Virus record (IMG/VR): IMGVR_UViG_3300023116_000003
Reading direction: 5' to 3' (one strand)
Length of the DNA stretch: 51,436 nt
From: a virus
Part shown: positions 12,159 through 51,436 of the stretch, one piece after another
Layout of the letters: every line of letters begins with the position of its first letter
Position numbering within the stretch: position 1 is the stretch's first letter
Made by a program: the position numbers and the translations under genes
Notes under the pieces: generated by a model
Told to the model about the DNA's origin: nothing
Database searches by the model: none
The model's input: only the letters and a program-made list of their open reading frames with translations

Positions 12159-12187
12159 ATTATACAGGTCATTTACAGTTTTGTCAA
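12159..12187 (-). promoter_or_regulatory. Consensus sigma70 promoter for the structural (minus) arm
   Basis: Minus strand reads TTGACA (12187-12182), a 17-nt spacer, then TATAAT (12164-12159). Both hexamers are 6/6. Confidence 0.7.
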
Positions 12188-12194
12188 GTATTTC

Positions 12195-12223
12195 TTGACA
12201 AAAAGCTAATCTGACTGTATAAT
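12195..12223 (+). promoter_or_regulatory. Consensus sigma70 promoter firing rightward into the non-coding hub
   Basis: TTGACA (12195-12200), a 17-nt spacer, then TATAAT (12218-12223). Its -35 and the -35 of the divergent promoter are the two arms of the palindrome TTGTCAAGtatttCTTGACAA (12181-12201). Confidence 0.7.
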
Positions 12224-12273
12224 ATAGATTACTAGCCCCCCCGGGCCACACCTAATATATACTGGTAGTCTTT

Positions 12274-12297
12274 AAAAGCCCGACCAAAATCCTTAAC
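12274..12297 (+). repeat. Iteron-like repeat, copy 1
   Basis: aaaagcccgaccaaaatccttaac. Compare copies at 12377-12405 and 12758-12780. Confidence 0.75.
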
Positions 12298-12376
12298 TCC
12301 CCTAGTAATACCCAGAGTCCCGACTAGAGTACTGGCGAATTCCCCCCACAAGTACCTCCCCGCCCTGTCTCTAGAG

Positions 12377-12405
12377 GCCCGCCCAAACTGGTTAACATCC
12401 TTAAC
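12377..12405 (+). repeat. Iteron-like repeat, copy 2 (with a ~9-10-nt internal insertion)
   Basis: ggcccgcccaaaCTGGTTAACAtccttaac has the same GCCCGnCCAAA...TCCTTAAC frame as copy 1. Confidence 0.6.
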
Positions 12406-12464
12406 CCGGCAAAATGTATATGATTTAGTATATATACGGGGGGTAGGCCCATGGCCTCCTGCCC

Positions 12465-12759
12465 CACCCTCTTAGTCATGGATGACTATAGAGGGTGAAA
12501 GAGACCTCCAAAATAACTTTAGTTATTTTTAACCCTCTAAAGCTTTGCTTTAGGACTCCACCAACTCCTCAATCATCCTGATTGAGAACTCTCCAGACCT
12601 CTCAGACCTCTAAAGCTACGCTTTAGGACTAGCTAGTTACCAAAGGATTTAAAAATCCTTTGAACTGTTAAAGTAAAACTTTAACCTCCACAGATTCCAA
12701 AGGAATCAGTAACTTACCGAGTTATCGGCCTCAACTTAAAACTCTTAAACGAGTTTTAA
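12465..12759 (+). repeat. Train of 10 short hairpins/palindromes (H1-H10)
   Basis: H1 12465-12497, H2 12510-12529, H3 12537-12553, H4 12568-12586, H5 12610-12626, H6 12641-12662, H7 12667-12685, H8 12693-12707, H9 12710-12724, H10 12736-12759. Stems are 5-15 bp and loops 2-6 nt. A tandem CAGACCTCT x2 lies at 12594-12611. Confidence 0.85.
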
Positions 12760-12780
12760 AAAGCCCCGCCAAAATCCTTT
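12758..12780 (+). repeat. Iteron-like repeat, copy 3
   Basis: aaaaagccccgccaaaatccttt. Together with copy 1 it brackets the hairpin train, about 485 bp apart. Confidence 0.7.
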
Positions 12781-12795
12781 CCTCACCCGCGCATA

Positions 12796-12820
12796 CCTGC
12801 ACATGATGCAGGGTTTCTTC
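12796..12820 (+). terminator. Weak terminator-like hairpin (H11)
   Basis: CCTGCA-catga-TGCAGG followed by GTTTCTTCGCCTGTTTT. The stem is short and the T-tract interrupted. Confidence 0.25.
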
Positions 12821-12871
12821 GCCTGTTTTAGCCCGCATTATGCGCAGGAAAAATCACGCACCAGAAACTTG

Positions 12872-12901
12872 TTGACTCCAAAAAAAATCTGTGAGTTTAA
12901 T
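12872..12901 (+). promoter_or_regulatory. Probable early promoter
   Basis: TTGACT (12872-12877), an 18-nt spacer, then TTTAAT (12896-12901), about 60 nt upstream of the first early ORF. Confidence 0.5.
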
Positions 12902-12963
12902 GTAAATCGTCTCAGCAACACCGAGACAAAACAACACACACACAACTCCAAAGGAGAGTACAC

Positions 12964-13113
12964 ATGAAGACTTTCGAAGAAAGACAAGCACAAGTTGAAT
13001 CCGGCCTGATCACCCCGACCGAAGCGAAGCTTGAGGAACTCAGAGATCAGGTAGCCGTAGGCTTGATAACTGCCGAAGAAGCAGAGAACGCAGCGAAGCT
13101 GCTGACGCACTAA
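12964..13113 (+). CDS. 49-aa early protein
   Basis: Hand translation: MKTFEERQAQVESGLITPTEAKLEELRDQVAVGLITAEEAENAAKLLTH. An AAAGGAG SD sits in a CA-rich leader. Below the track threshold. Confidence 0.65.
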   Translation: MKTFEERQAQVESGLITPTEAKLEELRDQVAVGLITAEEAENAAKLLTH

Positions 13114-13158
13114 AAAACTAAAACACACACATACACACAACTCCAAAGGAGCATACAC

Positions 13159-13683
13159 ATGAAAGCAACATCCAAGTCATTCGCCAACATCGACAACAAC
13201 CGTCTTGCAACTGCGAAGCAGTTCTTCAGGGTTACCGTACACCACGCTAACCTCGTCAAAGACGAGAAGGGCATCCCTGAAAAATACTTTTTCAGGCTCC
13301 GTAAGCAGGTTGAAGCAGTCCTTGCCCGGCACAACCCCAAAGGGTTGACTCATGGTGACGTACAGAAATTCCTAGCTTCAAAGAAGCTACCCAAGTATTT
13401 AATTGGAAACTTGCAGATACTCACCCTTGTTGAGCCGAAGGCTGAAGAACAACCGAAGGTTGCCAAGAAAGCCCCGGCAAAGCCGAAGGCTAAGAAACAG
13501 CCGAAGGCTGTCAAAACTCAACCGAAGGTTGTTCAGCCAACAGCAACAGCCACCCCGGAGTTTAATCATAAAGACTTTGATGCCCGTCTGACCTTCCTTG
13601 AAGGTGAAGTCAGCGTCATGTCAGAAGATATCCAGACTATCAAGTCTGGTATGGAAATGATTCTGGAATCCATCCGGGGTTAA
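13159..13683 (+). CDS. Early protein with a histone-H1-like PK(A/V) repeat tract, 174 aa
   Basis: Track ORF with the same CA-rich leader plus AAAGGAG. It has five CCGAAGG(C/T)T repeats (13435-13530) encoding EPKAEEQPKVAKKAPAKPKAKKQPKAVKTQPKV, and a helical C-terminus. Confidence 0.85.
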   Translation: MKATSKSFANIDNNRLATAKQFFRVTVHHANLVKDEKGIPEKYFFRLRKQVEAVLARHNPKGLTHGDVQKFLASKKLPKYLIGNLQILTLVEPKAEEQPKVAKKAPAKPKAKKQPKAVKTQPKVVQPTATATPEFNHKDFDARLTFLEGEVSVMSEDIQTIKSGMEMILESIRG

Positions 13684-13729: not shown

Positions 13730-13888
13730 ATGGTAGTTTTAAAATTAATTAATTTAATATTTAATCGCCAGTGCAAGTTAGTTGAAATTAAATCAATAAG
13801 AAAATCAAGGAGTTATGCCAGATCAGGCTACTACCACTACATTGTAGTGAACAACACCCAGTACGTTTTCAGAGAGTTTATAATTTAA
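13730..13888 (+). CDS. 52-aa hypothetical early protein
   Basis: Hand translation: MVVLKLINLIFNRQCKLVEIKSIRKSRSYARSGYYHYIVVNNTQYVFREFII. AAGGAG lies 7 nt upstream. The region is AT-rich, so it could be non-coding. Confidence 0.4.
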   Translation: MVVLKLINLIFNRQCKLVEIKSIRKSRSYARSGYYHYIVVNNTQYVFREFII

Positions 13889-13901
13889 TTTAATTTTAAA
13901 T

Positions 13902-13948
13902 GGGTTATAATTATCTCTCAAAGGTTTTTGAGAGAGATAATTAAACCC
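13902..13948 (+). repeat. Early intergenic hairpin element R1
   Basis: GGGTTATAATTATCTCTCAAA-GGTT-TTTGAGAGAGATAATTAAACCC, followed by cc-aaagccgaaGGAGG and ATG 13970. Confidence 0.85.
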
Positions 13949-13969
13949 CCAAAGCCGAAGGAGGCAAGC

Positions 13970-14212
13970 ATGAAATCAATCAGGATTGGCAAGATTCGTA
14001 AAGACGGTAAATTCCCAGTTAAGATAGTTTACCAAGGCTCACCAAATATGTTTGGTGGTTTCTATCCAAGCACTGAATATAATAAATTATTCAATTTAGA
14101 AGACATTCAAGATTATTCTCTTTATGAGGGGGATATGTTCTTCAACGACAGCGGTATGTCCGACTCACTGTTTTTCAGTGAGGAAGATTTAGCCAAAGTC
14201 GCAGTTAATTAA
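13970..14212 (+). CDS. 80-aa early protein (start re-called; the track used TTG 13928 inside the hairpin)
   Basis: GGAGG lies 6 nt before ATG 13970. Sequence begins MKSIRIGKIRKDGKFPVKIVYQGSPNMFGG... Confidence 0.8.
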   Translation: MKSIRIGKIRKDGKFPVKIVYQGSPNMFGGFYPSTEYNKLFNLEDIQDYSLYEGDMFFNDSGMSDSLFFSEEDLAKVAVN

Positions 14213-14226
14213 TTTAATTTTTAAAA

Positions 14227-14272
14227 GGGTGTTTATATATCTCAAAGGTTTTTGAGAGATATATAAACCCCC
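14227..14272 (+). repeat. Early intergenic hairpin element R2
   Basis: GGGTGTTTATATATCTCAAA-GGTT-TTTGAGAGATATATAAACCCCC, then ccAAAGGAG and ATG 14291. Confidence 0.85.
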
Positions 14273-14290
14273 CCAAAGGAGAAAAGCACC

Positions 14291-14497
14291 ATGCTAGTTT
14301 TAGATTACCCAAGCAAAAAAGAACTGAAAGAAAACATTGGCGAGTCACTTTGTTACATGGAAACTTCCATGTTTGGCCCAGAATACACTCCGAATGGGAC
14401 ATTCTGTGGCTGTAACCGACCTCATATTACTGGTCACAAGCGGGAGTTTTTCGCACAAGTTACTATGAAAGACGGCAAGATTTTTAAAGTTAGTTAA
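14291..14497 (+). CDS. 68-aa early protein
   Basis: Track ORF with an AAAGGAG SD. Confidence 0.8.
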   Translation: MLVLDYPSKKELKENIGESLCYMETSMFGPEYTPNGTFCGCNRPHITGHKREFFAQVTMKDGKIFKVS

Positions 14498-14506
14498 TCT
14501 ATGAAA

Positions 14507-14550
14507 GGACTTATTATCTCTCAAAGGTTTTTGAGAGAGATAATAAGTCC
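14507..14550 (+). repeat. Early intergenic hairpin element R3
   Basis: GGACTTATTATCTCTCAAA-GGTT-TTTGAGAGAGATAATAAGTCC. The lower stem differs from R1/R2 but remains complementary. Confidence 0.85.
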
Positions 14551-14571
14551 CAAAACCCAAAGGAGTACGGC

Positions 14572-14796
14572 ATGATCACTTTAACTAAAATTAGTTTGTT
14601 AACTGGTAACACTAACAAAATGGTGTTGCCAATAACCCAAGATGAATATAACAAAGCTGAACAAGCTAGAAAAGGAGGTATGTACATACAAGATGCTTAC
14701 CCTACTCTCACAGCAGATCAAAGAGAGTTTTTACTAAGTGGAGCAACCCCAGAAGAATGGGATGCTTTATTTGGAGAAGATGAGGAGGCAGCATGA
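14572..14796 (+). CDS. 74-aa early protein
   Basis: Track ORF with an AAAGGAG SD. The motif YIQDAYPTLTADQREFLLSGATPEEWDALF is a conserved small phage protein signature (from memory). Confidence 0.85.
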   Translation: MITLTKISLLTGNTNKMVLPITQDEYNKAEQARKGGMYIQDAYPTLTADQREFLLSGATPEEWDALFGEDEEAA

Positions 14797-15023
14797 AAGA
14801 AGTAAAAATCATTGAATGGATTGGCTATGATGCAGGGGCAATTACTTGTAATTCTATAGCTAATAAACGTAGGACAGCTGGTGGAAACATTAAAGTTACA
14901 GATCATAATGGTGACATTTATGATGTGCATCCTCTTGTTTATTCCTGTGGTGGCTATGGTCTCCAAACTATTGAAAGTGAAGTTGGAGTGTATCCAATAC
15001 GATGGAAAGAGATTGCATTTTAA
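14793..15023 (+). CDS. 76-aa early protein
   Basis: Track ORF with an ATGA overlap to the upstream gene and a GGAGG SD. Confidence 0.8.
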   Translation: MKEVKIIEWIGYDAGAITCNSIANKRRTAGGNIKVTDHNGDIYDVHPLVYSCGGYGLQTIESEVGVYPIRWKEIAF

Positions 15024-15039
15024 AATTAATTAATATAAA

Positions 15040-15085
15040 GGGTGTTTATATATCTCAAAGGTTTTTGAGAGATATATAAACCCCC
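15040..15085 (+). repeat. Early intergenic hairpin element R4 (within the 73-nt perfect repeat 15021-15093)
   Basis: Same sequence as R2/R5. The block 15021-15093 is identical to 15910-15982. Confidence 0.9.
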
Positions 15086-15099
15086 CAAAGGAGTACGGC

Positions 15100-15912
15100 A
15101 TGAATTTCAATACCTTAAAAGAAATCACCCGATCAAAATCAATACCCGAAGCAGTAGCATCAGCATATAAAAAAGAAGATAAAGCAGGTTGGCGTAAAGC
15201 GATGCTAAAGTTTATGCAATGGCTGAAAGGAGAGGATGCTGGTTGGTCAATTATGATGCAAAAGGGTAACATCAAACAGCAGTTTCTATCCTTCAGTAGC
15301 GTACCTGAAGTAAGCTGTCCCGGTGCTGGTGCTTGTCTCAAGTTTTGTTATAGCTTTAGAGCTTGGAGATATCCCGATGCATTTTTTAGACAATTACAAA
15401 ACTATGTTTTGATGCAAACAGCTGAAGGTAGAGCCAAGATACTTGAAGACTTAGACAAGTATAAATCAGACAAACCAGTAGACTTTAGGTTATATGTTGA
15501 TGGAGACTTTGCCAGTGCTTCAGAAGTTACCTTCTGGATGGAAGCCTTGAAAGCCCGACCTTGGTTGAAAGCCTATGGCTACTCTAAATCTTGGGAAGAG
15601 TTGTTAGCTTACAAGGGCGAATGGCCTAGTAATTATAAATTAAATTTGTCTTCTGGTAGCAAGCATGATGCTGAGTTAAAAGCTAAGGTTAAAGCTTTAC
15701 CAGTTACAAGGGGTAGTTTTGTTGCAGTAGATGTTGGTTATAAAGTAACCAGTGATATGCATGGCGATAGGAAACATCAGAGTTTCCTCAGAAAACTATA
15801 TGGTATTAAAGCCTTCACCTGCCCCGGAAAATGTAATACTTGTACCCCAAAAGGTCATGCTTGTGGATCAGATAGATTCCAAGGCATGGATATAATAATT
15901 GCAACGCATTAA
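15100..15912 (+). CDS. Cys-rich 270-aa protein, possibly GP88-family; function unknown
   Basis: Track ORF with an AAAGGAG SD. The motifs SCPGAGACLKFCYSF, FRLYVDGDF, YGYSKSW and the C-terminal CPGKCNTCTPKGHAC resemble the phage GP88 domain from memory. Confidence 0.85.
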   Translation: MNFNTLKEITRSKSIPEAVASAYKKEDKAGWRKAMLKFMQWLKGEDAGWSIMMQKGNIKQQFLSFSSVPEVSCPGAGACLKFCYSFRAWRYPDAFFRQLQNYVLMQTAEGRAKILEDLDKYKSDKPVDFRLYVDGDFASASEVTFWMEALKARPWLKAYGYSKSWEELLAYKGEWPSNYKLNLSSGSKHDAELKAKVKALPVTRGSFVAVDVGYKVTSDMHGDRKHQSFLRKLYGIKAFTCPGKCNTCTPKGHACGSDRFQGMDIIIATH

Positions 15913-15928
15913 AATTAATTAATATAAA

Positions 15929-15974
15929 GGGTGTTTATATATCTCAAAGGTTTTTGAGAGATATATAAACCCCC
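15929..15974 (+). repeat. Early intergenic hairpin element R5 (within the 73-nt perfect repeat 15910-15982)
   Basis: Identical to R4. Confidence 0.9.
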
Positions 15975-15990
15975 CAAAGGAGACAGCGAT

Positions 15991-16164
15991 ATGCTATTGC
16001 TAGTAAAAGTTAAAAACAATTATGGTACTGAACACATCTATCCAGTCAGCGAAGAGGCCAAACTACTGGCCCAGCTGGCTGGTAGTAAAACATTGACCAG
16101 AAGCACTATAGAAATAGCTAAGAAACTAGGATTTAAATTCTCGGTTGAGAGGGCAGAAGTATGA
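15991..16164 (+). CDS. 57-aa early protein
   Basis: Hand translation: MLLLVKVKNNYGTEHIYPVSEEAKLLAQLAGSKTLTRSTIEIAKKLGFKFSVERAEV. It has an AAAGGAG SD and its stop overlaps the next ATG. Confidence 0.65.
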   Translation: MLLLVKVKNNYGTEHIYPVSEEAKLLAQLAGSKTLTRSTIEIAKKLGFKFSVERAEV

Positions 16165-16379
16165 TAACTAGAATTCACGTTAACCAGCATAACATTAGGG
16201 CCAACAGTAAAGACGGTGGCTCAAGGCCAATACTTACTGTTAAAGACTACAAGCAGAACAGAAAGTGTAACGAAGTAGTATTTACTAATGGACGAGTAAT
16301 ATATTCCCCGGACAAACCATTGTCCTGTGGAGCTAAAGTATGGATTGAGACAAACGAACCAGTAGAAATTGTACGCTGA
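16161..16379 (+). CDS. 72-aa early protein
   Basis: Track ORF. The pattern IHVNQHNIRAN...PILTVK...CGAKVWIET is a recurrent small phage protein pattern (from memory). Confidence 0.8.
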   Translation: MITRIHVNQHNIRANSKDGGSRPILTVKDYKQNRKCNEVVFTNGRVIYSPDKPLSCGAKVWIETNEPVEIVR

Positions 16380-16394
16380 ACATGGGAGTTTAAT

Positions 16395-16712
16395 ATGACT
16401 GAAGATAGGATAGCGGTTAGAAGAAAGCAGTGGTTGAACTGGCATAGAAAAAATCCTGAGATTTGGAAAGCCTTTGAAAAGTTTACCCTTGAAGCAATTG
16501 AATCTGGGCGTACAAAGTATTCTCATTGGGCAATTATGAATAGGGTTCGATGGCATACTGATATCGAAACTACAGGTAAACCTTTTAAAATATCTAATGA
16601 CCACATAGCTTTTTATGCTAGGGCTTTTGTGCATAAATATCCTCAACATAAAACTTTTTTTAAACTAAAACCTTTAAAGGAGGAACGTGAACCATGCCCC
16701 GCGACCCAGTAG
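16395..16712 (+). CDS. 105-aa early protein
   Basis: Track ORF with a GGGAG SD. Confidence 0.8.
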   Translation: MTEDRIAVRRKQWLNWHRKNPEIWKAFEKFTLEAIESGRTKYSHWAIMNRVRWHTDIETTGKPFKISNDHIAFYARAFVHKYPQHKTFFKLKPLKEEREPCPATQ

Positions 16713-16843
16713 ATATTGCAGAATTAAAACGAGACTTTGAAGAAACCTACGGTTCAGAAGAGCAAAGGTTTAAGGATTGGTGGGAACATCAAGAAGAGAT
16801 AGCAGATAGAGAATACACTTCATGTGAATCAAAGGAGATATAA
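16694..16843 (+). CDS. 49-aa acidic micro-protein
   Basis: Hand translation: MPRDPVDIAELKRDFEETYGSEEQRFKDWWEHQEEIADREYTSCESKEI. AAGGAGG lies upstream. It overlaps the previous gene by 19 nt. Confidence 0.5.
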   Translation: MPRDPVDIAELKRDFEETYGSEEQRFKDWWEHQEEIADREYTSCESKEI

Positions 16844-16844
16844 A

Positions 16845-17057
16845 ATGAAAAAGAAAACAATGATAAAGTTTTGCAAAAAAACTCAAGAAACAGCTATGAA
16901 ATATAATTTATCCGATTTAGAAGTCATTGAAGCTTTGCTGGTAATGTATTCATCAATAGCAAAGCTGCATGAGATTTCAAAGGATGAAGCGTTAAACGGT
17001 CTGAGTGTAACGCTAGACATGATTTATGAAAAATCCGAAGAGGAGGTAGTGCATTAA
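16845..17057 (+). CDS. 70-aa early protein (start re-called at ATG 16845)
   Basis: AAAGGAG lies 6 nt before ATG 16845. The track used GTG 16824. Confidence 0.75.
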   Translation: MKKKTMIKFCKKTQETAMKYNLSDLEVIEALLVMYSSIAKLHEISKDEALNGLSVTLDMIYEKSEEEVVH

Positions 17058-17239
17058 TGAGTCATATGAAAAGACAGGTTTTAAACTGGGAAGTTTATAC
17101 TTCGGGACATAAGATATTAATTAAGGACAAAACTTATCCCGAAGCTATAGAACTTGCGGAGCAGTACGGTACACCGTTTGCCATATCTCAGATAAGTTCA
17201 GAGGCTTATGAAAATAAAAAAATAAAGGTTGTTAATTAA
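17057..17239 (+). CDS. 60-aa early protein
   Basis: Track ORF with a GGAGG SD and a TAATG overlap. Confidence 0.75.
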   Translation: MSHMKRQVLNWEVYTSGHKILIKDKTYPEAIELAEQYGTPFAISQISSEAYENKKIKVVN

Positions 17240-17268
17240 TCTCTCAAAGGGTTTTGAGAGAGATTAAT
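17235..17268 (+). repeat. Early intergenic hairpin element R6 (divergent copy)
   Basis: ATTAATCTCTCAAA-GGGT-TTTGAGAGAGATTAAT. The loop is GGGT instead of GGTT and the lower stem is different. Confidence 0.8.
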
Positions 17269-17295
17269 AACAACCCAATCCAAAAGGAGAACGCT

Positions 17296-17565
17296 ATGCA
17301 AATTAATGAAATCCGAAGAGAAATGGGTGAGTTTGATCTCGCCCTAGAAGAATGCAAGCAAATGGTTGAATTTGCCCCGCTTGTTTCTGACTTGGTTGAC
17401 GCAGTACTAATAAAAACCAGAAGTGAAGAAGACGATATAAGATTCTCATGTGCGAGAGCATTGGGTAGAGTTACAGGAATGATGCCCGCAGTACTGGCTA
17501 TTGAAGATGTTGAAAAGCGTAAAGAAAAATTAATTCAAATGACAAAGGAGCAAAGCAATGACTAA
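17296..17565 (+). CDS. 89-aa early protein (start re-called at ATG 17296)
   Basis: AAAGGAG lies 7 nt upstream. The track start TTG 17254 is inside hairpin R6. Confidence 0.8.
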   Translation: MQINEIRREMGEFDLALEECKQMVEFAPLVSDLVDAVLIKTRSEEDDIRFSCARALGRVTGMMPAVLAIEDVEKRKEKLIQMTKEQSND

Positions 17566-18466
17566 TGTACTTTCAATAAACAACAATCGTAAGCATATGC
17601 TTGATATATACAATCAGGGCTATGGGGCTGCTAGTTTTGATACCCACATAACTCCACTTTATTTTAACCCGACTCCACATGATAGGATTCAATCCAATAA
17701 GATGGCTATCTATCGTGGAGATACTTGGAATTTTCTGGGGGCTGTCAGTAGGAAGTACAAGCTGGTCACTCACCGAGAAATGATTGATAACCAACGTGTA
17801 ATTCTTGAGCGTTCTGATCTTGATTGTACTGGTATTCAAGAAAGAATTACTATCGGAGGTAACGGCTCTAAGTGCTTTGTTCATCACACCCTCCCGGCTC
17901 ATAGTGTAACTACACCGGACGGTGATACTGCTGTCCTGACTTTCCTTGGTACTAATAGCTACGATGGGACGTTCAGTTTCTTATTGTCTGGTGGTGCAAA
18001 GCAGGGTGCTTGCATGAACGGTCAGGTCTGGACTAAGGACGCAGCCACAATTTATAGGGCTAAACATTCTAAGAATCTTAATATAAATCATGCAGCTAGG
18101 GTTGTTGGTGGTGCTTTGGAAGTATTTGCCCAGCAGAATGAGTTGTGGTCAACGCTTAGAAATACACCTATTTCTATAAATGAAGTTAAGATAGCGATCT
18201 TCCATGCGTTGAATTTAGGTTCTAATTTCCATGAGTTTGAAACCAAATGGAAAGAAACAGGCAAGGCTAGTAAAGATTATATGTATCTTTTAAGGGCTTG
18301 GTACAACTACTCTAGAAAACTTGGTAATAATCAGTGGGCTTTGTACAATGCCTTCACTGATTGGTCAACCCATGCCCCAGCTGCGAGAAAGGGTTCAGAT
18401 ATTAGTAACTTACAGCGTAAGCGTGAGGCAACAGTTCAGAATGTAGTAACTAAGCTGGCTGCTTAA
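17558..18466 (+). CDS. DUF932-like protein, 302 aa
   Basis: Track ORF with an AAAGGAG SD. Its size and the motifs GTNSYDGTFSF...GAKQGACMNG match the DUF932 phage/plasmid family from memory. Confidence 0.8.
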   Translation: MTNVLSINNNRKHMLDIYNQGYGAASFDTHITPLYFNPTPHDRIQSNKMAIYRGDTWNFLGAVSRKYKLVTHREMIDNQRVILERSDLDCTGIQERITIGGNGSKCFVHHTLPAHSVTTPDGDTAVLTFLGTNSYDGTFSFLLSGGAKQGACMNGQVWTKDAATIYRAKHSKNLNINHAARVVGGALEVFAQQNELWSTLRNTPISINEVKIAIFHALNLGSNFHEFETKWKETGKASKDYMYLLRAWYNYSRKLGNNQWALYNAFTDWSTHAPAARKGSDISNLQRKREATVQNVVTKLAA

Positions 18467-20752: not shown

Positions 20753-20816
20753 TTCACCTGTTTACTCCTTTCAGGTGAACTTTAGGGAGGGCCGTAAAAA
20801 GCCCTCCTTTTTTTTT
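20753..20816 (+). terminator. Tandem hairpins forming a rho-independent terminator
   Basis: TTCACCTG-11 nt-CAGGTGAA (20753-20779), then GGGAGGGC-cgtaaaaa-GCCCTCC followed by T9 (20785-20816). Confidence 0.8.
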
Positions 20817-20832
20817 CTGAGGATACTTATAA

Positions 20833-24260: not shown

Positions 24261-24887
24261 ATGCCTTATCTAGTTGAGTGCGAAAACTGTAACGAAGACT
24301 TGAAGATACAACATCTTCATTGGGAAGAACTTGTCTGTGCTGAGTGCGGCGATACAATCAAAAACACTCTACCTGAAATGTATCGTCATTATATTAATCT
24401 ACAGTACAAGGATGGTATCTGGTATTACACTGGTAATGCGTCCGGGAGAAGCACACTAGAAGCGCATTTAAAAAAGAACAAGAAACGTATGTATGTAGGC
24501 GGTAAGTATGTACCTGTTAGTGATGCTACTCATGCCCCCGGCAGATTCAAAAACTACAATGATGTAGTATTCAAAGAGTATTACAAAAGCAGACACATAC
24601 AAGAAGGCAACATCTATCTGATATCCAATCCCGCTTGGGACGGGTGGCTAAAGGTTGGCAGGGCTATGTCAGTCCCAGATAGATTGAATGTCTTTCAAAC
24701 AGGCTCCCCATATAGGGACTACAAAGTTGAGTATGCAATAGCCGTTGAAGATGCTCCCCACATAGAAAAGCTTTTACATAAAGAATTAAAAAACAAGTAC
24801 CGTTCCAAGTATGAATGGTTTAAACTGGATGTTTCCGATGCACTAAACATCCTCAATGAGGTAATTGATAATGTCAAAAACGATTGA
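24261..24887 (+). CDS. Zn-ribbon plus T5orf172 (GIY-YIG-superfamily) domain protein
   Basis: The N-terminus has CENC...CAEC. The C-terminal NIYLISNPAWDGWLKVGRAMSVPDRLNVFQTGSP...LHKELKNKYRSKYEWFKL matches the T5orf172/MUG113 signature (from memory). Confidence 0.85.
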   Translation: MPYLVECENCNEDLKIQHLHWEELVCAECGDTIKNTLPEMYRHYINLQYKDGIWYYTGNASGRSTLEAHLKKNKKRMYVGGKYVPVSDATHAPGRFKNYNDVVFKEYYKSRHIQEGNIYLISNPAWDGWLKVGRAMSVPDRLNVFQTGSPYRDYKVEYAIAVEDAPHIEKLLHKELKNKYRSKYEWFKLDVSDALNILNEVIDNVKND

Positions 24888-30260: not shown

Positions 30261-30463
30261 TATCTTTTAAGTTACTTATTAATTTGCAGGGCGACCTGAT
30301 AACAGAAATGAGTATGCTTCCTAAAGATAAAATATCAAAAGTGTTTAAAAAAGATGATGCCCCGCTAATTTATAAAGCAATTAGCGAGGCTGAGTTAAAG
30401 TTGGAAGGACTACACAAATATCTTGAAGATGAGATATGTGCGTTTAATAACTCCAGACTGTAG
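30245..30463 (+). CDS. 72-aa hypothetical protein, last gene of the plus arm
   Basis: Track ORF with an AGGAG SD. Its 3' end overlaps the convergent endolysin gene by 20 nt. Confidence 0.6.
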   Translation: MEGNLISFKLLINLQGDLITEMSMLPKDKISKVFKKDDAPLIYKAISEAELKLEGLHKYLEDEICAFNNSRL

Positions 30464-40546: not shown

Positions 40547-43500
40547 TTAAACACCACTCATTAGTATGCCTGTAATTATATTAACTACTCTGTCCATAGC
40601 AGATGTACTGCCTGTTTCAGAAATACTTGCTTCGTTAGACAACGCTGTAGCATACAATGTTGTCTTACGCTGCTGTTCATTTTCATATGCTGTTCTAGCA
40701 TATGTAGCCTCATCACGCAACTGCTGCCAAATGTTAGATAACTCAGCAGCCGTCAGATTAAATGCCATCTGCGCAGCAGCTTGGTTAGAAGCATTCTGTG
40801 CAGCAGTGTCTATTGTGTTAGCCTGTCTGCGCCATTCAATATTAGACTGTTGGATTGCCTGTGCATTTTGGGCATTCCAAAGTTCCCTCTGTTGATCCAT
40901 CTGAGCATTGAACTGCTCTAGCTGTGTGGTCAACTGGTTGTTGAACTTAGCTATATCAATTTCATTTCCTGCGTTTATAGCAGCGATCCTGTTCTGTTCA
41001 GTAGCGTTAAACTGAGCCATAGCATTTGTCTGGGCTGCATTAAACTGCTCTGTCTGCGTATACAAGTTAGCCATAAATTGCTGGGCCTGTTGCTTGTTAG
41101 CTGCGTTAAACTGCAAGGCAGCGTTTGTAGCAGCCTGATCTGACAACAGTCTCTGCTGCTGCATCTGCTGATCAAGAACAAGTGCCTGTTGCTGATTGGA
41201 TAAGTTAGCCATATCAAGTGTCAGAAAGTTCTGTGCATTCTGTATAGCTAATTTTGTACGCTGATCCGCAGTAGCCAAATCCATTGAAGCCATAGCCGTG
41301 GCATTCTGCATAGCAGCTTGCTGCCTAGCGTTCATATTGGCTATTGTAGTTGATTGCATAAACTGGCTGTTAGCCAACTCAGCTTGCTGTGCAGCATTAA
41401 ACTTAGTTAAGTCTATGTTAGCAACAGTAGTAGCATTCTGTACTGCCCGCTGCTGGTCTACGTTAAGCTGGGCCACATTAAGCTGTCTTGCAATCTCGGC
41501 AGCAGCCAAGTTAGTCTGCATCTGGGCATTTAGATTGGCTAATTCAGTCTGCTGTGCTGCATTAAGGTTGTCAGCACCCGCCTGATTTAAAGCCGATAGA
41601 TTTGCCAGCCTTGTCTGTTGTTCTGAACTAAGGTTAGCTAATTCCATCTGCTGTTTTAGGTCAGCGTTCTTAGCAAGAAACTCCGCAGCTGTCTGAAACT
41701 CTGCAAGCTTGGCTTGATTCTCAGCAGACATGTTAGCCAAGTCAGTTTGGCTCTGTATCTGTAGATTGGCTAACTCAACCTGCTGCGCATTAGACAGGTT
41801 CTGTGCATTCATGGCCTGTTGGTTTTGCGCATTAAGTTCGGCAGACCGTTGCTGGTTCTGTAGGTTCTGCAACCTAACCTGCTGTGCCTGTTCTGCACTA
41901 GCCAGCGTGGCTTGCTGACTGAACTGACTCTGCAACTGAGCCATATCATTAGCCATCTGAGCAGTCTGGCTTCCTGCTGTCTGCTGGTTAGCTAGATTCT
42001 GCATGCGCCTTGTCATGTCTAACTGAGAAGTTTGCAAGTTTGCCTGTTGCTGGTTGGACAAATTCTGTGCAGCCCTAGCCTGTAACGCCTGTGCATTGGA
42101 CTGTGCAATAGGTAACGCACTCTGAATAATTGCATTAAACAAAGAATCACGGCCTACAGTAGACGCACTCATGCCTCGCTGGGCTAGATTCTGTTCAATA
42201 AGAGAAACAGCTGGTTTAGCCCAAGCCGGAACTTCACCGGACTCTAGCCCGCCAAGAAGTGATTCCATTTGGGATGAAACAAGTGCTTCAGGCGGGAGTG
42301 CAGCAACAGCAGCTTGTACATTAATAGGTTCGTTATCTATCTGGGCTTCAACTGTAGCCGGGTCTTCTACAATAGCAGCCGTGATGTTTTCAGGTATATC
42401 ACCAACCTGCGCCACCATTGTTGCAGCTTCGCCTTTAGCAGCTGTGCCTTTAACTGCCCTAGCCTGAGATGCTGTGTAACTAATCTTCTCTAGTATCTGC
42501 GCTTCAACACCAGTAGGGGCAGTGCCTGTTATAGCCTGTCGCTCTTGTTTTTCTGCTTGAGGGGTAGGTGCTAGATTAACCCTACCTACAGTAACCTCCG
42601 GCACAAAAGCATCTGGGCTAATAGTGTAGTCTGCTACTCCTGCCCGGGCTGCTTCAACTTCTGCACCACTAACTTGTGCAGCTTCGGCGGGTGCGCTAAG
42701 TGTTCTAATTTCGTCTACAGTTATGGGAGGACGGGTAACACCCTGTGCAGCTGTTGTTTTATTTAGCTCTTCAGCTAGTGCTGCTTGATATTGCTGGGGT
42801 GTTATTGTTCCTTTTAATACAGCTTCTTTTACATTTGCAACAGCTGATGTTAACTGTGATGCAGAAACTCCTTGCGGGGGAGTTAAGTTAGCAAACTGAT
42901 CTAACTCCTGTATAGCAGAGTCCGGGGTGATACCTGTTTCAACATCAACAGTAGCTACTTGAGGTTGTGTAGCTTTTGTTATTTGCTGTACGTTTAATGT
43001 GCGTCTTTCTTCCGCTGTTCTTGTATCTTCTACAGGTTTAGGTGTATCAGTTGCCAATTTAGCAGCAGCGGGGACATTAGTAGGAGTAGGATTAAAAGTA
43101 TTAGTAGTAGTAGTAGTAGAACTTGGTACCCCGGGCATATTTGGGTAGTAACCAGTAAAAGTATTATTAGTTACCCCGGGCATATTTGGGTAGTAACCAG
43201 TAAAAGTATTATTAGTTATAGCTTGCTGCCGTGCTGCCGCTGCTTCTGCTTCTGCTTCTGCTTTTGCTTTTGCTGCTGCTTCTGCTGCTGCCCGCTGCTG
43301 TGCTGCTAATGCATCATTTTTATCACGCAGCTGTTTTTCCAAAATTCGATTAGCTTCCGCAGAGAATTTTTTATCGGTAGTTGCTCGCTTTTCTATGGCA
43401 GATTGAAGGGTTTTAACAGTTGTCCCTGTTTCTTTAGCAATATCTTCTAAAGTTTTTTCACCAGCAAGATAGGCATCTATATACCCCTGCACAGAACCAC

Positions 43501-48758: not shown

Positions 48759-51436
48759 TTAAGCCATTCCCTGTCCAGCAGTGAAGCCGTACCAAGTAGT
48801 ACCGCCATTGTGAGTGAAGAAGGTGAAAACGTCTGTTGCGCCACTAGCAGACAGCGTAGGTGCTGTACCAGCGGGCCAGTCAACAGAGGCGGGCCATGTG
48901 ATAGCAGAGCCGTTGTTGACAACCTTCAGGGTAAAACTAGAAACTCGTCCAGAAGCGGCGGGATTGCTAAACGTGTAAGTTACCGCACCAGCCATTGCTG
49001 TGGAGAAGTTGTTGCCTGTATCCAAGTCTATGGTGACTGCACCGCTTGTGCCTGTTGTGGCGTATTCTTCAATGTACTGACCGTTGCTTAATACAATGTT
49101 ACCGCCGTCTGCGTAGAGAGCGTTGCCAGAGCCGTTGTGGTCAATGTTAATGCTATCACCAGAGCCATCTTGCTGAATACGCAAAGCCCTACCAGAAGCA
49201 GATGCGTTATTCACAATAATTTCTACCAAGCCACTGGAGGATGTAAATGCTGATGAATCTGAAGCAACACGCAGACCAGAACCATTTATCAAAGAGTCTG
49301 CATCTATGCGCATAACGGTTGCTGTTGTATTAGCCGCCAACACCCTAATAGCATTCTGTGTCGTAGTTTCGGCATCTATATACAAAGCATTGCCGTTACC
49401 ATCTTGATTAATGTAGAGTCCAACTCCTGTACCAGCGTTTTGAACTTGTAGCCCATTTGCGGCGGAGCCAGAGTTCTGTTGATAAAAGTACGCCAGATTG
49501 CCAGATGCATGAACCCCGGCGTTTTGAACTTGCAACACCTGACCAGTTGTGTTTACTGCCGCGACATATAGTGACTGCTGGCTGGTCGCTTCACTATCAA
49601 TGTTCAGGGCGCGTCCATTACCATTCTGGTCGATGAAGATTGCGTTGCCTGTGCCTTCGTTTTGAACCTTGAAAGCAATACCAGAAGCCACACCGTTAGC
49701 CATAGTTGCCTGTAACAGCACACCGCTAGTTCCAGCAGCAGACCTGAATTGCGCCAATGTTCCAGATGTTAACGTGTTGGTGTTACAGTAAATCCCAACA
49801 CCGCCTGTTCCAGTAGTCCCGGCAGTATCAATACTTATTGCTGAAGAAGTTGCTGCCTCTGAATCAATGGCCAGCGCAGCACCACTACCATTCTGGTCGA
49901 TGACCACGCCAGTGCCTGTGCCATTATTGTAAGCATAAATAGCACTACCTGTTGCAGATGCGTTATGTACTTGCGAACGGACAAGGCCATCTGCAGAAAA
50001 GGAAGCAGAATTACAATAAGCGTAAATAGCGCGTCCGGTAGTGGCTACGTCATTCCTAACGTATATAGCGTGTGCCGTGGTTGCCTCTGAATCAACGTAC
50101 AACCCATTCCCATTACCGTTCTGGTCGATAAGTACACCGCTGCCTGTGCCGTCTTGCTTGACACGCAATGCGATTCCAGTCGAAGTGGCGTTGTCTGCTG
50201 ACACCTGTAACAAATTTCCGCTAAAACTGGCATTGTTGCTGTAAAGTGAAACTCCAGTTCCGCTGGTAATAGTTTCTAAATCAAAATAGTTTCCTATACC
50301 AGTAGTCGCATCAGTAACAGTGTGCAGGGTGTAAGAAGGACTGCTCGTACCAATACCTACATTACCATCAGAGGTAATGCGCATACGTTCGTTAGCACCG
50401 GAATTTGCACCAGTTCTAAACTCTAAATCTCCCGTGTCAGAAGAATTTATACCCCCAGCTACAGTTCCAGAATGGGCAAACTCTAAACCTGTGTCTGCTC
50501 CAGCACTATCAATTTTAAATGGAGTGCCACCAGAACTGGCATATACATGCAGGTATCTGTCCGGACTACTCGTGCCAATACCCAATCTCTCAGTACTTGC
50601 ATCCCAGAATAACTTTGCAGTCGTGCCAGTGTCTTCGTAGAAAGAGATGTCCCCGCCTTCTCCAATAAGCATACGGTCACGGATTGTTCCTAGCGTATCC
50701 GAAGTACGAATAAAAAGGTTACCACCGTCTACGTCTGAAACACGTTTATCTACAATCTCAACCGTATTGTGTGTCGCATTTGTGCGATAAATATCAATAC
50801 TAGCGGTGTCCCCTACCGCATTTCCCAACGAAGCTATTGTTGCGGTAACGGCAGTAGCACCGCTATCCACAGTCAGCCCATCAGCAGTGACTGTGCCTGT
50901 TACGTCAAGAGCAGTAGCAGGTGAAGTATTACCTATACCAAGACGTTCTGTTGAGGCATCCCAGAAAAACTTTGCTGTGGTGCCAGTGTCTTCGTAGAAT
51001 AAGATGTCGTTTGTTGCAGCATCGGCTTTGAGTGCTATTATGTTGTTGGCGTATAATAGTAAATCATCAGCCGTTGAAGACCCAAACCGTACAGAGCTAC
51101 CTGTTGCTGTTATAAACCCAGTAGTTGCCCCATCCGTATCATTTATAGTTATGCTGGGCGTAGTGTCATTAATAGTAATGTCACCATCAACAGTCAGCCC
51201 ATCAGCCGTAAGCGTACCTGTTATGTCTGCGCCAGCAAAAGATGGACTGTCAGTTGTGGCTACGCCCTGATCTAATGCTTTAACGGCTGTGATGTTTGTT
51301 AATTCGCTGTCCATCAACGCACCAGCAGCAGTGACGTTAGTTGTGTCTGTAACGTCTGCGAGGGCTTCAATGCCGTCCAGCTTGGTCTCGTCTGCTGTGG
51401 TAAAGGAAGCAGTAGTAGCATCTAGTACAGCACTGT
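48759..51436 (-). CDS. Tail fibre, C-terminal part (continuation of the gene that starts at 1304)
   Basis: The track ORF 48759..51317 frame stays open to the window end and is continuous with 1..1304. It carries five IDQNGNG.AL.IDSEA-type solenoid repeats and a duplicated FYEDTGTTAK.FWDASTERLGIG module. Confidence 0.88.
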   Translation of the reverse strand, partial: SAVLDATTASFTTADETKLDGIEALADVTDTTNVTAAGALMDSELTNITAVKALDQGVATTDSPSFAGADITGTLTADGLTVDGDITINDTTPSITINDTDGATTGFITATGSSVRFGSSTADDLLLYANNIIALKADAATNDILFYEDTGTTAKFFWDASTERLGIGNTSPATALDVTGTVTADGLTVDSGATAVTATIASLGNAVGDTASIDIYRTNATHNTVEIVDKRVSDVDGGNLFIRTSDTLGTIRDRMLIGEGGDISFYEDTGTTAKLFWDASTERLGIGTSSPDRYLHVYASSGGTPFKIDSAGADTGLEFAHSGTVAGGINSSDTGDLEFRTGANSGANERMRITSDGNVGIGTSSPSYTLHTVTDATTGIGNYFDLETITSGTGVSLYSNNASFSGNLLQVSADNATSTGIALRVKQDGTGSGVLIDQNGNGNGLYVDSEATTAHAIYVRNDVATTGRAIYAYCNSASFSADGLVRSQVHNASATGSAIYAYNNGTGTGVVIDQNGSGAALAIDSEAATSSAISIDTAGTTGTGGVGIYCNTNTLTSGTLAQFRSAAGTSGVLLQATMANGVASGIAFKVQNEGTGNAIFIDQNGNGRALNIDSEATSQQSLYVAAVNTTGQVLQVQNAGVHASGNLAYFYQQNSGSAANGLQVQNAGTGVGLYINQDGNGNALYIDAETTTQNAIRVLAANTTATVMRIDADSLINGSGLRVASDSSAFTSSSGLVEIIVNNASASGRALRIQQDGSGDSINIDHNGSGNALYADGGNIVLSNGQYIEEYATTGTSGAVTIDLDTGNNFSTAMAGAVTYTFSNPAASGRVSSFTLKVVNNGSAITWPASVDWPAGTAPTLSASGATDVFTFFTHNGGTTWYGFTAGQGMA
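51310..51436. repeat. Second copy of the terminal overlap (identical to nt 1-127)
   Basis: Identical to the window start. Confidence 0.97.

Follow-up and report, generated by a model that had tools for sequence, protein, structure and literature searches.

Intergenic hairpins of the early arm

The IMG/VR virus record IMGVR_UViG_3300023116_000003, a stretch of 51,436 nucleotides (nt) referred to here as the window, contains a family of six hairpins located between the small genes of its early arm (13.9-17.3 kb). All six are on the + strand and share the core TCTCAAAGG(T/G)TTTTGAGAGA; their positions, stem types and neighbouring open reading frames (ORFs) are collected in Table 1, together with repeated linkers and transcription signals. 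A search with the core motif TCTCAAAGGTTTTTGAGAGA yielded five exact copies and one copy with a single mismatch (GGGT loop, 17242-17261), compared to 0.01 expected from shuffled sequences. The family had initially been described from the letters alone (the sequence-only reading), and the search confirmed all six copies at their places and in the same orientation. The extent of the last copy, given previously as 17235-17268, required correction, as the helix is longer (17227-17275, GGUUGUUA...UAACAACC); it overlaps the stop codon of ORF 17057-17239. Because hairpins 2, 4 and 5 are identical, the window contains four independent versions of the lower stem (types A-D), not six.

Upon folding, the six copies reach -20 to -24 kcal/mol, with z-scores of -3.7 to -6.4 against shuffled controls. 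The minimum free energy (MFE) of hairpin 1 is -20.4 kcal/mol (z = -5.4; 17 bp and a 12-nt loop), with an alternative fold of 20 bp, a tetraloop and a 2-nt 3' bulge, and that of hairpin 3 is -23.8 kcal/mol (z = -6.4). We also scanned the whole window for stems of at least 11 bp with no more than one mismatch: the six copies and a hairpin at 30359-30390 were the only ones found, and 20 shuffled controls gave no stem of 13 bp or longer. A sliding-window MFE scan of the + strand arm was uninformative, since coding sequence yields many windows of like energy.

The surroundings of the hairpins follow a common plan, most of which had been noted in the sequence-only reading and was borne out. Each hairpin is preceded by 13-20 nt of near-pure A/U (e.g., UUAAUUUAAUUUUAAAU), and the segment TTAATTAAT contains or adjoins a stop codon at four of the copies (2, 4, 5 and 6). 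The sequence directly 3' of the hairpins is CCCCCAAAG, CAAAACCC or CAAUCC, followed by an unstructured CA-rich spacer and the Shine-Dalgarno (SD) sequence AAAGGAG, and 14-21 nt separate the end of the helix from the next ATG. No copy is followed by a U-tract. The two 74-nt linkers that hold hairpins 4 and 5 flank the GP88-family gene as direct repeats.

Table 1. Hairpins, linkers and transcription signals of the window, with their coordinates
Feature	Coordinates	Strand	Context or basis
Hairpin 1, type A, GGGUUAUAAUUA.../...UAAUUAAACCC	13902-13948	+	between ORF 13730-13888 and ORF 13970-14212
Hairpin 2, type B, GGGUGUUUAUAUA.../...UAUAUAAACCCC	14227-14272	+	upstream of ORF 14291-14497
Hairpin 3, type C, GGACUUAUUA.../...UAAUAAGUCC, perfect stem	14507-14550	+	upstream of ORF 14572-14796
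Hairpin 4, type B	15040-15085	+	upstream of GP88-family ORF 15100-15912
Hairpin 5, type B	15929-15974	+	upstream of ORF 15991-16164
Hairpin 6, type D, GGUUGUUAAUUAA.../...UUAAUAACAACC, GGGU loop	17227-17275	+	upstream of ORF 17296-17565
74-nt linker (stop-rich AT tract, hairpin 4, CCCCCCAAAGGAG)	15020-15093	+	100% identical to 15909-15982
Second copy of 74-nt linker, contains hairpin 5	15909-15982	+	sequence identity
Sigma-70 consensus promoter (TTGACA, 17 nt, TATAAT)	12195-12223	+	consensus scan, 12/12 matches
Mirror-image sigma-70 consensus promoter	12187-12159	-	consensus scan, 12/12 matches
Canonical intrinsic terminator (GC-rich 9-bp stem, then run of T)	20784-20819	+	directly before primase/helicase gene

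Pairing of the stems and the extra GA

The pairs were counted for each sequence from the loop outward and not from an alignment, in which MAFFT placed the bulges inconsistently. By this count, 9 of the 16 stem positions (5, 8-11 and 13-16) differ on both sides among the four types, and all pairs are Watson-Crick, with neither G-U pairs nor mismatches. The earlier claim that the lower stems differ and yet stay complementary, i.e., that they covary, therefore stands, with four independent versions in place of six.

The 3' arm of every copy carries one more GA than the 5' arm has TC, as originally stated, whereas the 2-nt bulge derived from it is not a fixed feature. In the MFE structure predicted by ViennaRNA, the slack is accommodated in the loop, which gives a continuous stem of 16-18 bp and a 12-nt loop (AAAGGUUUUUGA); the form proposed in the sequence-only reading, with 19-21 bp, a tetraloop (GGUU or GGGU) and a 2-nt bulge on the 3' arm, lies just 0.9 kcal/mol above that structure. 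Because the arms consist of dinucleotide repeats, the two extra bases may sit anywhere along the run, and the hairpins are better described as a slippery (UC)n/(GA)n+1 helix for which two registers of nearly equal energy are predicted. The metagenome variants of the loop are limited to its four central bases (GGTT, GGGT, GGTG), and the variant in contig L081 has GAA/UUC in place of AAA/UUU, a compensatory change in the apical 3 bp in which the extra GA is kept. Such natural variants favour the register with the tetraloop and the 2-nt 3' bulge (19-21 bp).

Variation at a single pair of type B is represented in the metagenomes by GGGTGTTT/AAACACCC (T-A), GGGTGTTT/AAACCCCC (TxC) and GGGGTTT/AAACCCC (G-C). 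Chimeras in which the 5' arm of one type is joined to the 3' arm of another were found in none of the contigs, even though the types share no stretch of identity longer than the apex; in folding calculations most such chimeras would lose 4-11 kcal/mol. For these reasons, the pairing itself appears to be maintained under selection. We found no candidate for a kissing interaction with the 12-nt loop, as its complement TCAAAAACCTTT occurs nowhere on the + strand. Rfam 15 gave no match at gathering thresholds, and at E<=1 only miRNA-precursor models were returned, at 25-29 bits versus thresholds of 63-80.

Hairpins in related phages

Exact-motif scans of the IMG/VR and JGI metagenome collections revealed true members of the family only in a tight group of estuarine contigs, which carry the same four stem types and small variants of them. 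A looser motif (CTCAAAGNNTTTTGAGAG) gave mostly single matches in unrelated contigs of IMG/VR, and a motif scan of 185,579 bacterial and archaeal genomes gave no genuine match, the three hits being isolated chance matches in unrelated metagenome-assembled genomes.

More distant relatives were located through the DUF932 protein encoded at 17558-18466. These phages contain different hairpins in the same early arm, mostly of 19-20 bp (in L064rc, the reverse complement of contig L064, at 3698 and 6162; in L068rc at 1324; and in L078 and L084-L086). The same perfect 20-bp hairpin, GGGAUGAUAUAAAUCUCUUU-AUUUUAC-AAAGAGAUUUAUAUCAUCCC, is found in L078, L079 and L064; L064 carries others as well (19, 26 and 29 bp), all of them immediately 5' of an SD sequence, and L068 also has a hairpin of 20 bp. 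In L084-L086 (47% amino acid identity), three or four copies of a 19-20-bp hairpin share a conserved 1-nt bulge in the 3' arm and a U-G wobble, which would be a C-A mismatch on the other strand. One of the L064 hairpins (27-29 bp, 2382-2446 of the reverse complement) extends into its flanks, where CUUCUCC and GGAGAAG pair too and sequester the SD sequence of the next gene; cleavage of this modelled helix would free it.

Directly upstream of gene 17296, the sequences on either side of the hairpin can be aligned between the window and L078, and the hairpins have no more than an AAUCUCU/AGAGAUU core in common; the site is orthologous, and its helix is rebuilt at unchanged length in L078, L079 and L064. 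The element thus has counterparts at syntenic positions in relatives, with a different 20-bp hairpin at the orthologous junction. The 89-amino-acid gene behind the L084 hairpin showed no homology to window gene 17296 by BLASTP, and for L084-L086 we therefore claim no more than an equivalent position in the early arm. L080 has no hairpin before its 89-amino-acid gene, and in L066 a hairpin separates two genes whose counterparts in the window overlap. Because comparable hairpins were found neither in the early arm of HTVC115P nor in HMO-2011, both of them cultured relatives, the feature appears to be limited to a sub-clade.

What the unrelated sequences have in common is a Watson-Crick helix, AU-rich and about 20 bp long, with a GC clamp and a top that is pyrimidine-rich on the 5' side and purine-rich on the 3' side. 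In the window and the relatives alike, the helices are always in sense orientation and end a few bases before the SD sequence. The constant position between stop codon and SD sequence would be expected if the hairpins were RNA stability or insulator elements that act without RNase III, an unlikely but serious alternative: an RNase E cut in the 5' AU tract would leave a protective 5' stem-loop or, in variants of the same idea, the hairpins would serve as barriers to 3' exonucleases like the repetitive extragenic palindromic (REP) elements, or would block pairing of the upstream coding sequence with the next SD sequence. The A/U tract on the 5' side of each hairpin and the unstructured CA-rich spacer with AAAGGAG on the 3' side are in line with such a role. 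However, neither 5' stabilisers nor barriers to exonucleases are known to require a helix as long as about 20 bp. The tight clustering at 19-21 bp across unrelated sequences and the conserved slack of the 3' arm would also be left unexplained.

The apex of 20-24 nt, invariant while the lower stems drift, could instead be the binding site of a phage protein, either an RNA regulator or a DNA repressor that recognizes the TCTCAAA-N4-TTTGAGA palindrome, co-ordinating the small early genes in the manner of actinophage stoperators or CIR-type sites. The location of all copies within one co-regulated block of early genes would suit such a protein. We nevertheless consider it rather improbable, since a double-stranded DNA operator needs no complementary, covarying flanks, and the relatives keep the structure and the length but not the sequence. 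Moreover, no helix-turn-helix, repressor or RNA-binding domain was detected in the scanned early ORFs, and the identity of the apex within one genome can be explained by duplication or gene conversion.

Gene exchange at the linkers

Comparison of the window with its relatives revealed about 10 distinct breakpoints within 25 nt of a hairpin, in zones that make up 16% of the region at 13.7-17.4 kb, and about seven elsewhere, at plain gene borders. The cassette at 13974-14206 is replaced in L080, L005 and L056; L057, L062 and L066 have lost it, and in these three contigs hairpin 1 runs directly into the sequence that flanks hairpin 2 downstream. A 324-nt segment (14764-15086), composed of one ORF and hairpin 4, occurs in the window only and is absent from its closest relatives. 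Further breakpoints are located at 14274, 14488, 14558-14575, 15976-15993 and 17284, and the type C hairpin precedes at least three unrelated genes in different contigs (including L003/L081 and L066). Boundaries of recombination modules, which the sequence-only reading had listed among its alternatives, thus gain direct support as an added property of the hairpins.

A comparable pair of linkers lacks hairpins altogether. Two CA-rich direct repeats of 35 nt (12934-12968 and 13129-13163; 91% identical), each ending in an SD sequence and ATG, bracket a 49-amino-acid gene (12964-13113) that none of the close relatives has; the breakpoints lie at 12968 and 13113. As this ribosome-binding-site linker pair also brackets an indel, recombination is read as a consequence of repeated linkers and not as a selected function.

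The same data could be taken to mean that the role lies in the DNA, namely that the hairpins are selfish or recombinogenic palindromic linkers, acting as cruciforms or homology patches, that drive cassette exchange in the manner of the PeSL elements of T4-type phages, the RNA structure being incidental. The clustering of breakpoints at the hairpins (replacement or deletion of 13974-14206, insertion of 14764-15086), the occurrence of one hairpin type before unrelated genes, the identical linkers around the GP88-family gene and the T7-type endonuclease I encoded by the phage are all compatible with this. We find such a role rather doubtful: homology alone would hold neither the arms complementary nor the helix at about 20 bp, and crossovers in the shared apex should give mismatched arms, of which none were seen. 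Breakpoints also lie at plain gene borders and at the linker without a hairpin, so that any repeated linker recombines; no transposase or integrase domain was found among the scanned ORFs (not every ORF was scanned), and the motif is absent from bacterial genomes save for the three chance matches.

Probable early operon and its transcription signals

The ends of the window share 127 identical bases (1-127 = 51310-51436), through either a circular-assembly overlap or terminal redundancy, and in both cases it is a complete genome of about 51.3 kb. The nearest relatives of its terminase (63-66% amino acid identity) and DNA polymerase (49%) are those of the Pelagibacter phages HTVC115P, HTVC103P and HTVC104P, followed by the Roseobacter CRP phages and the Puniceispirillum phage HMO-2011. 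Judged by these two proteins, the phage is an uncultured, marine or estuarine podovirus of the HMO-2011 type. The + strand arm (approximately 12.2-30.3 kb) consists of small genes of unknown function, followed by genes for primase/helicase, DNA polymerase, endonuclease I and ribonucleotide reductase, and the structural genes are on the - strand. No RNA polymerase was found among the scanned ORFs, and the 2210-amino-acid virion protein has neither a Pfam domain nor a sequence match in the PDB.

A perfect sigma-70 promoter lies upstream of the hairpins (Table 1). We infer that the transcript carrying the hairpins starts at this promoter and ends at the terminator at 20784, and that the small genes between the two form a single host-transcribed early operon of about 8.6 kb. 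The promoter and its mirror image, back to back on opposite strands, make a 30-nt imperfect palindrome (12159-12223), probably the switch point between the early arm and the - strand arm; the same back-to-back arrangement occurs in L084 (2269-2307). Directly after the divergent promoters lies an ORF-poor leader of about 730 nt (12230-12960), C-rich and G-poor and full of short hairpins (e.g., 12437-12496, which folds at -34 kcal/mol), with the motifs CCCTCTAAAG...CTTTAGG near 12533 and 12609. Equivalent series of hairpins are found in L084 (2336-2870), L057, L062 and L072.

The six hairpins are not intrinsic terminators, because they lack a U-tract and the real terminators of the phage are short and GC-rich, with a run of T; nor are they among the + strand terminator matches, although the one at 20784 is. 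The additional hairpin at 30359-30390 (11 bp, 8-nt loop) sits at the convergence of the + and - strand arms and probably terminates transcription of one or both of them. PeSL stem-loops terminate transcription in a reporter assay (PMC2839356), and the G run and C run at the stem base and the inter-ORF position are features that they have in common with the window hairpins, which could accordingly be factor-dependent or partial attenuators that grade expression of the early operon. In our view this is highly unlikely, since none of the copies is followed by a U-tract, canonical GC-rich hairpin-plus-U terminators are in use at 20784, in L064rc at 2926 and in L084 at 3846, and six attenuators in series would leave little transcript for the downstream early genes up to 20784.

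The consensus scan also returned - strand matches in which the TTGAGA of the apex occupies the -35 position, separated by 17 nt from TAAAAT at hairpin 1 (13893-13921), AAAAAT at hairpin 2 (14217-14245), TAGATT at hairpin 3 (14496-14524) and TATTTT at hairpin 6 (17219-17247). Taken at face value, these would be antisense promoters, with the -10 element in the AT-rich flank, whose RNAs act against the upstream genes. We hold this to be extremely improbable: the region contains 31 promoter-like sites versus 26 expected from shuffles, i.e., at noise level, hairpins 4 and 5 give no match, near-pure A/T flanks yield -10 hexamers by chance, and the stems would be left unexplained. The four matches are probably due to chance.

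Three further features of the window lie outside the early operon. An ORF with a T5orf172/MUG113 domain (24261-24887) follows the DNA polymerase gene directly and possibly represents an insert that resembles a homing endonuclease; an 852-amino-acid, tail-fibre-like ORF contains diverged repeats with a period of about 222 nt (48905-50177); and a 1004-amino-acid ORF contains a 45-nt tandem duplication (43109-43198).

Proposed role of the hairpins

We tentatively propose, at somewhat less than an even chance, that the hairpins are signals of the RNase III type for processing and stability, with putative cleavage as a step and the exchange of cassettes as a by-product. This explanation is ranked first because the plan of a sense-oriented helix of about 20 bp matches both the folds of the T7 early sites and the published substrate rules (PMC3867540). 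The idealised substrate of the Escherichia coli enzyme has 22 bp, or two turns of A-form helix; bulges or loops at the target site lead to single-strand cleavage and can leave stabilising 3' hairpins; and antideterminant base pairs are defined for the E. coli enzyme in proximal and distal boxes set relative to the cleavage site (PMC3867540). The T7 early precursor of about 7000 nt contains five RNase III signals (PMC3867540). When we folded the T7 early intergenic regions, they showed a conserved upper stem (AAGGUCRCUC/GAGUGGCCUU), variable lower stems and an internal loop of which the 3' side (UAUGAU) is the longer one, and ended 10-24 nt before the next start codon. The analogy with T7, drawn already in the sequence-only reading, held for every feature that could be tested in silico (sense orientation and intercistronic position in an early operon that the host polymerase would transcribe, about two helical turns, conserved top, variable lower stems, 3' slack and spacing); its enzymatic part is a prediction.

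According to this proposal, host RNA polymerase would transcribe the six elements within one long early mRNA, in which each would form an AU-rich helix of about 20 bp with a basal GC clamp. The host's double-strand-specific endonuclease RNase III would process these helices as it does in the T7 early transcript, and the 2-nt GA slack may limit cutting to the 3' arm. Such a cut would leave a protective hairpin at the 3' end of the upstream message, and the cistron downstream of it would gain a free leader, rich in CA, and a free SD sequence; the small early genes would thereby each be stabilised and translated as separate units. Since the same linker of about 50-75 nt recurs between genes, it may also serve as a homology patch at which related phages exchange, gain and lose early-gene cassettes. 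What the analysis shows is the sequence family, its folding, covariation and position, the conserved structure in relatives and the clustering of breakpoints; we infer transcription through the elements, RNase III cleavage, which arm is cut and how expression is affected.

Several observations weigh against RNase III processing. The MFE fold, with its stem of 16-18 bp and 12-nt loop, is short for the enzyme. The window hairpins contain no G-U pairs, so that nothing separates an RNA from a single-stranded DNA structure, and template-switch mutation can also produce compensatory changes in a palindrome without selection on RNA. Junctions gain and lose hairpins among close relatives, and therefore no single copy is essential. 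The irregularity on the 3' side is not universal, as the L078-type, L064 and L068 hairpins are perfect duplexes. Finally, the hairpins are confined to a 3.4-kb part of the early arm, whereas T7 has sites in the late region as well.

A further proposal, distinctly unlikely in our estimation, would combine both aspects of the linkers. They would be the joints of promoter-less early-gene cassettes in HMO-2011-type podoviruses, each cassette being made up of hairpin, CA-rich spacer, SD sequence, small ORF and stop-rich AT tract. The slippery helix would be read by a dedicated factor other than RNase III, encoded by the phage or the host, and the joints would both insulate expression and promote the exchange of anti-host genes between co-infecting phages.

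Significance

Phages of the HMO-2011 type rank with the most abundant podoviruses of the sea. In the main comparative study of these phages, the words promoter, terminator, early, hairpin and intergenic do not occur at all (PMC9038755). The signal is of a known kind, and we rate the hairpins as a new sequence family within that kind; to judge from the same paper, expression signals have not been described for this phage group. If RNase III processing is correct, a lineage that is unrelated to T7 and has no RNA polymerase of its own would punctuate its host-transcribed early operon in a T7-like manner. The T7 design would then be a recurrent solution and not a peculiarity of T7, and the hairpins would provide a simple sequence marker of cistron boundaries in uncultured relatives. 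How repeated regulatory linkers shape a fast-evolving set of small early genes can be seen from the gains, losses and replacements of genes that cluster at the hairpins. The approximately four to eight distinct versions, together with the structural counterparts in relatives, suffice to seed a covariance model.

Comparison with known systems

Among other families of repeated hairpins, the integron attC sites were rejected as a model, since their base is conserved and their centre variable, and the reverse is true for the window. Like the window, N4-type phages combine conserved hairpins upstream of early genes with a podovirus that has a giant virion protein. N4-type hairpin promoters consist of a 4-7-bp stem and a 3-nt loop (PMC9163698), whereas the window has stems of 16-21 bp, loops of 4 or 12 nt and perfect sigma-70 promoters; this identity was also rejected, both on geometry and because the 2210-amino-acid protein carries no polymerase signal.

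The REP/BIME elements of enterobacterial operons are, like the hairpins described here, repeated and imperfect intercistronic palindromes; they are transcribed, as the window hairpins presumably are, and can stabilise the upstream mRNA. They are found in hundreds of copies on host chromosomes and are associated with a RAYT transposase, as opposed to the window motif, which is confined to one phage lineage. A host-derived REP-like element was rejected on the basis of the three isolated chance matches in the genome-contig scan.

The resemblance to the PeSL elements of T4-type phages (PMC2839356, PMC4122927) is closer. Both comprise a repeated intergenic AT-rich tract, a stem-loop with G/C runs, an SD sequence and ATG, both flank small genes of unknown function, and in both the breakpoints of indels and replacements between close relatives fall within the motif. 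PeSL elements contain a strong internal sigma-70 early promoter and act as terminators; the consensus scan gave no + strand promoter-like site at any of the six window elements (by eye, TATAAT occurs only in type A, without a usable -35), and on this ground a PeSL in the strict sense was rejected. The window stems are also twice as long and AU-rich.

The early sites of T7 (R0.3, R0.5, R1, R1.1 and R1.3) share no sequence similarity with the window hairpins, and their fixed internal loop differs from the sliding 2-nt GA slack of the AU-rich, near-perfect window helices. The phages also differ, that of the window being of the HMO-2011 type, with no RNA polymerase of its own detected and with cleavage as a prediction. 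Their organization is otherwise much alike: in each case, about five or six intercistronic hairpins lie in an early operon of 7-9 kb that is served by the host polymerase (in the window, presumably so), and the order is sigma-70 promoter, small genes and canonical terminator. In both phages, the upper part of the hairpin is conserved and the lower stems vary but stay complementary, extra bases are unpaired on the 3' side, the helix spans about two turns in total, and its end lies at a similar distance from the next start codon (10-24 nt in T7 versus 14-21 nt in the window).

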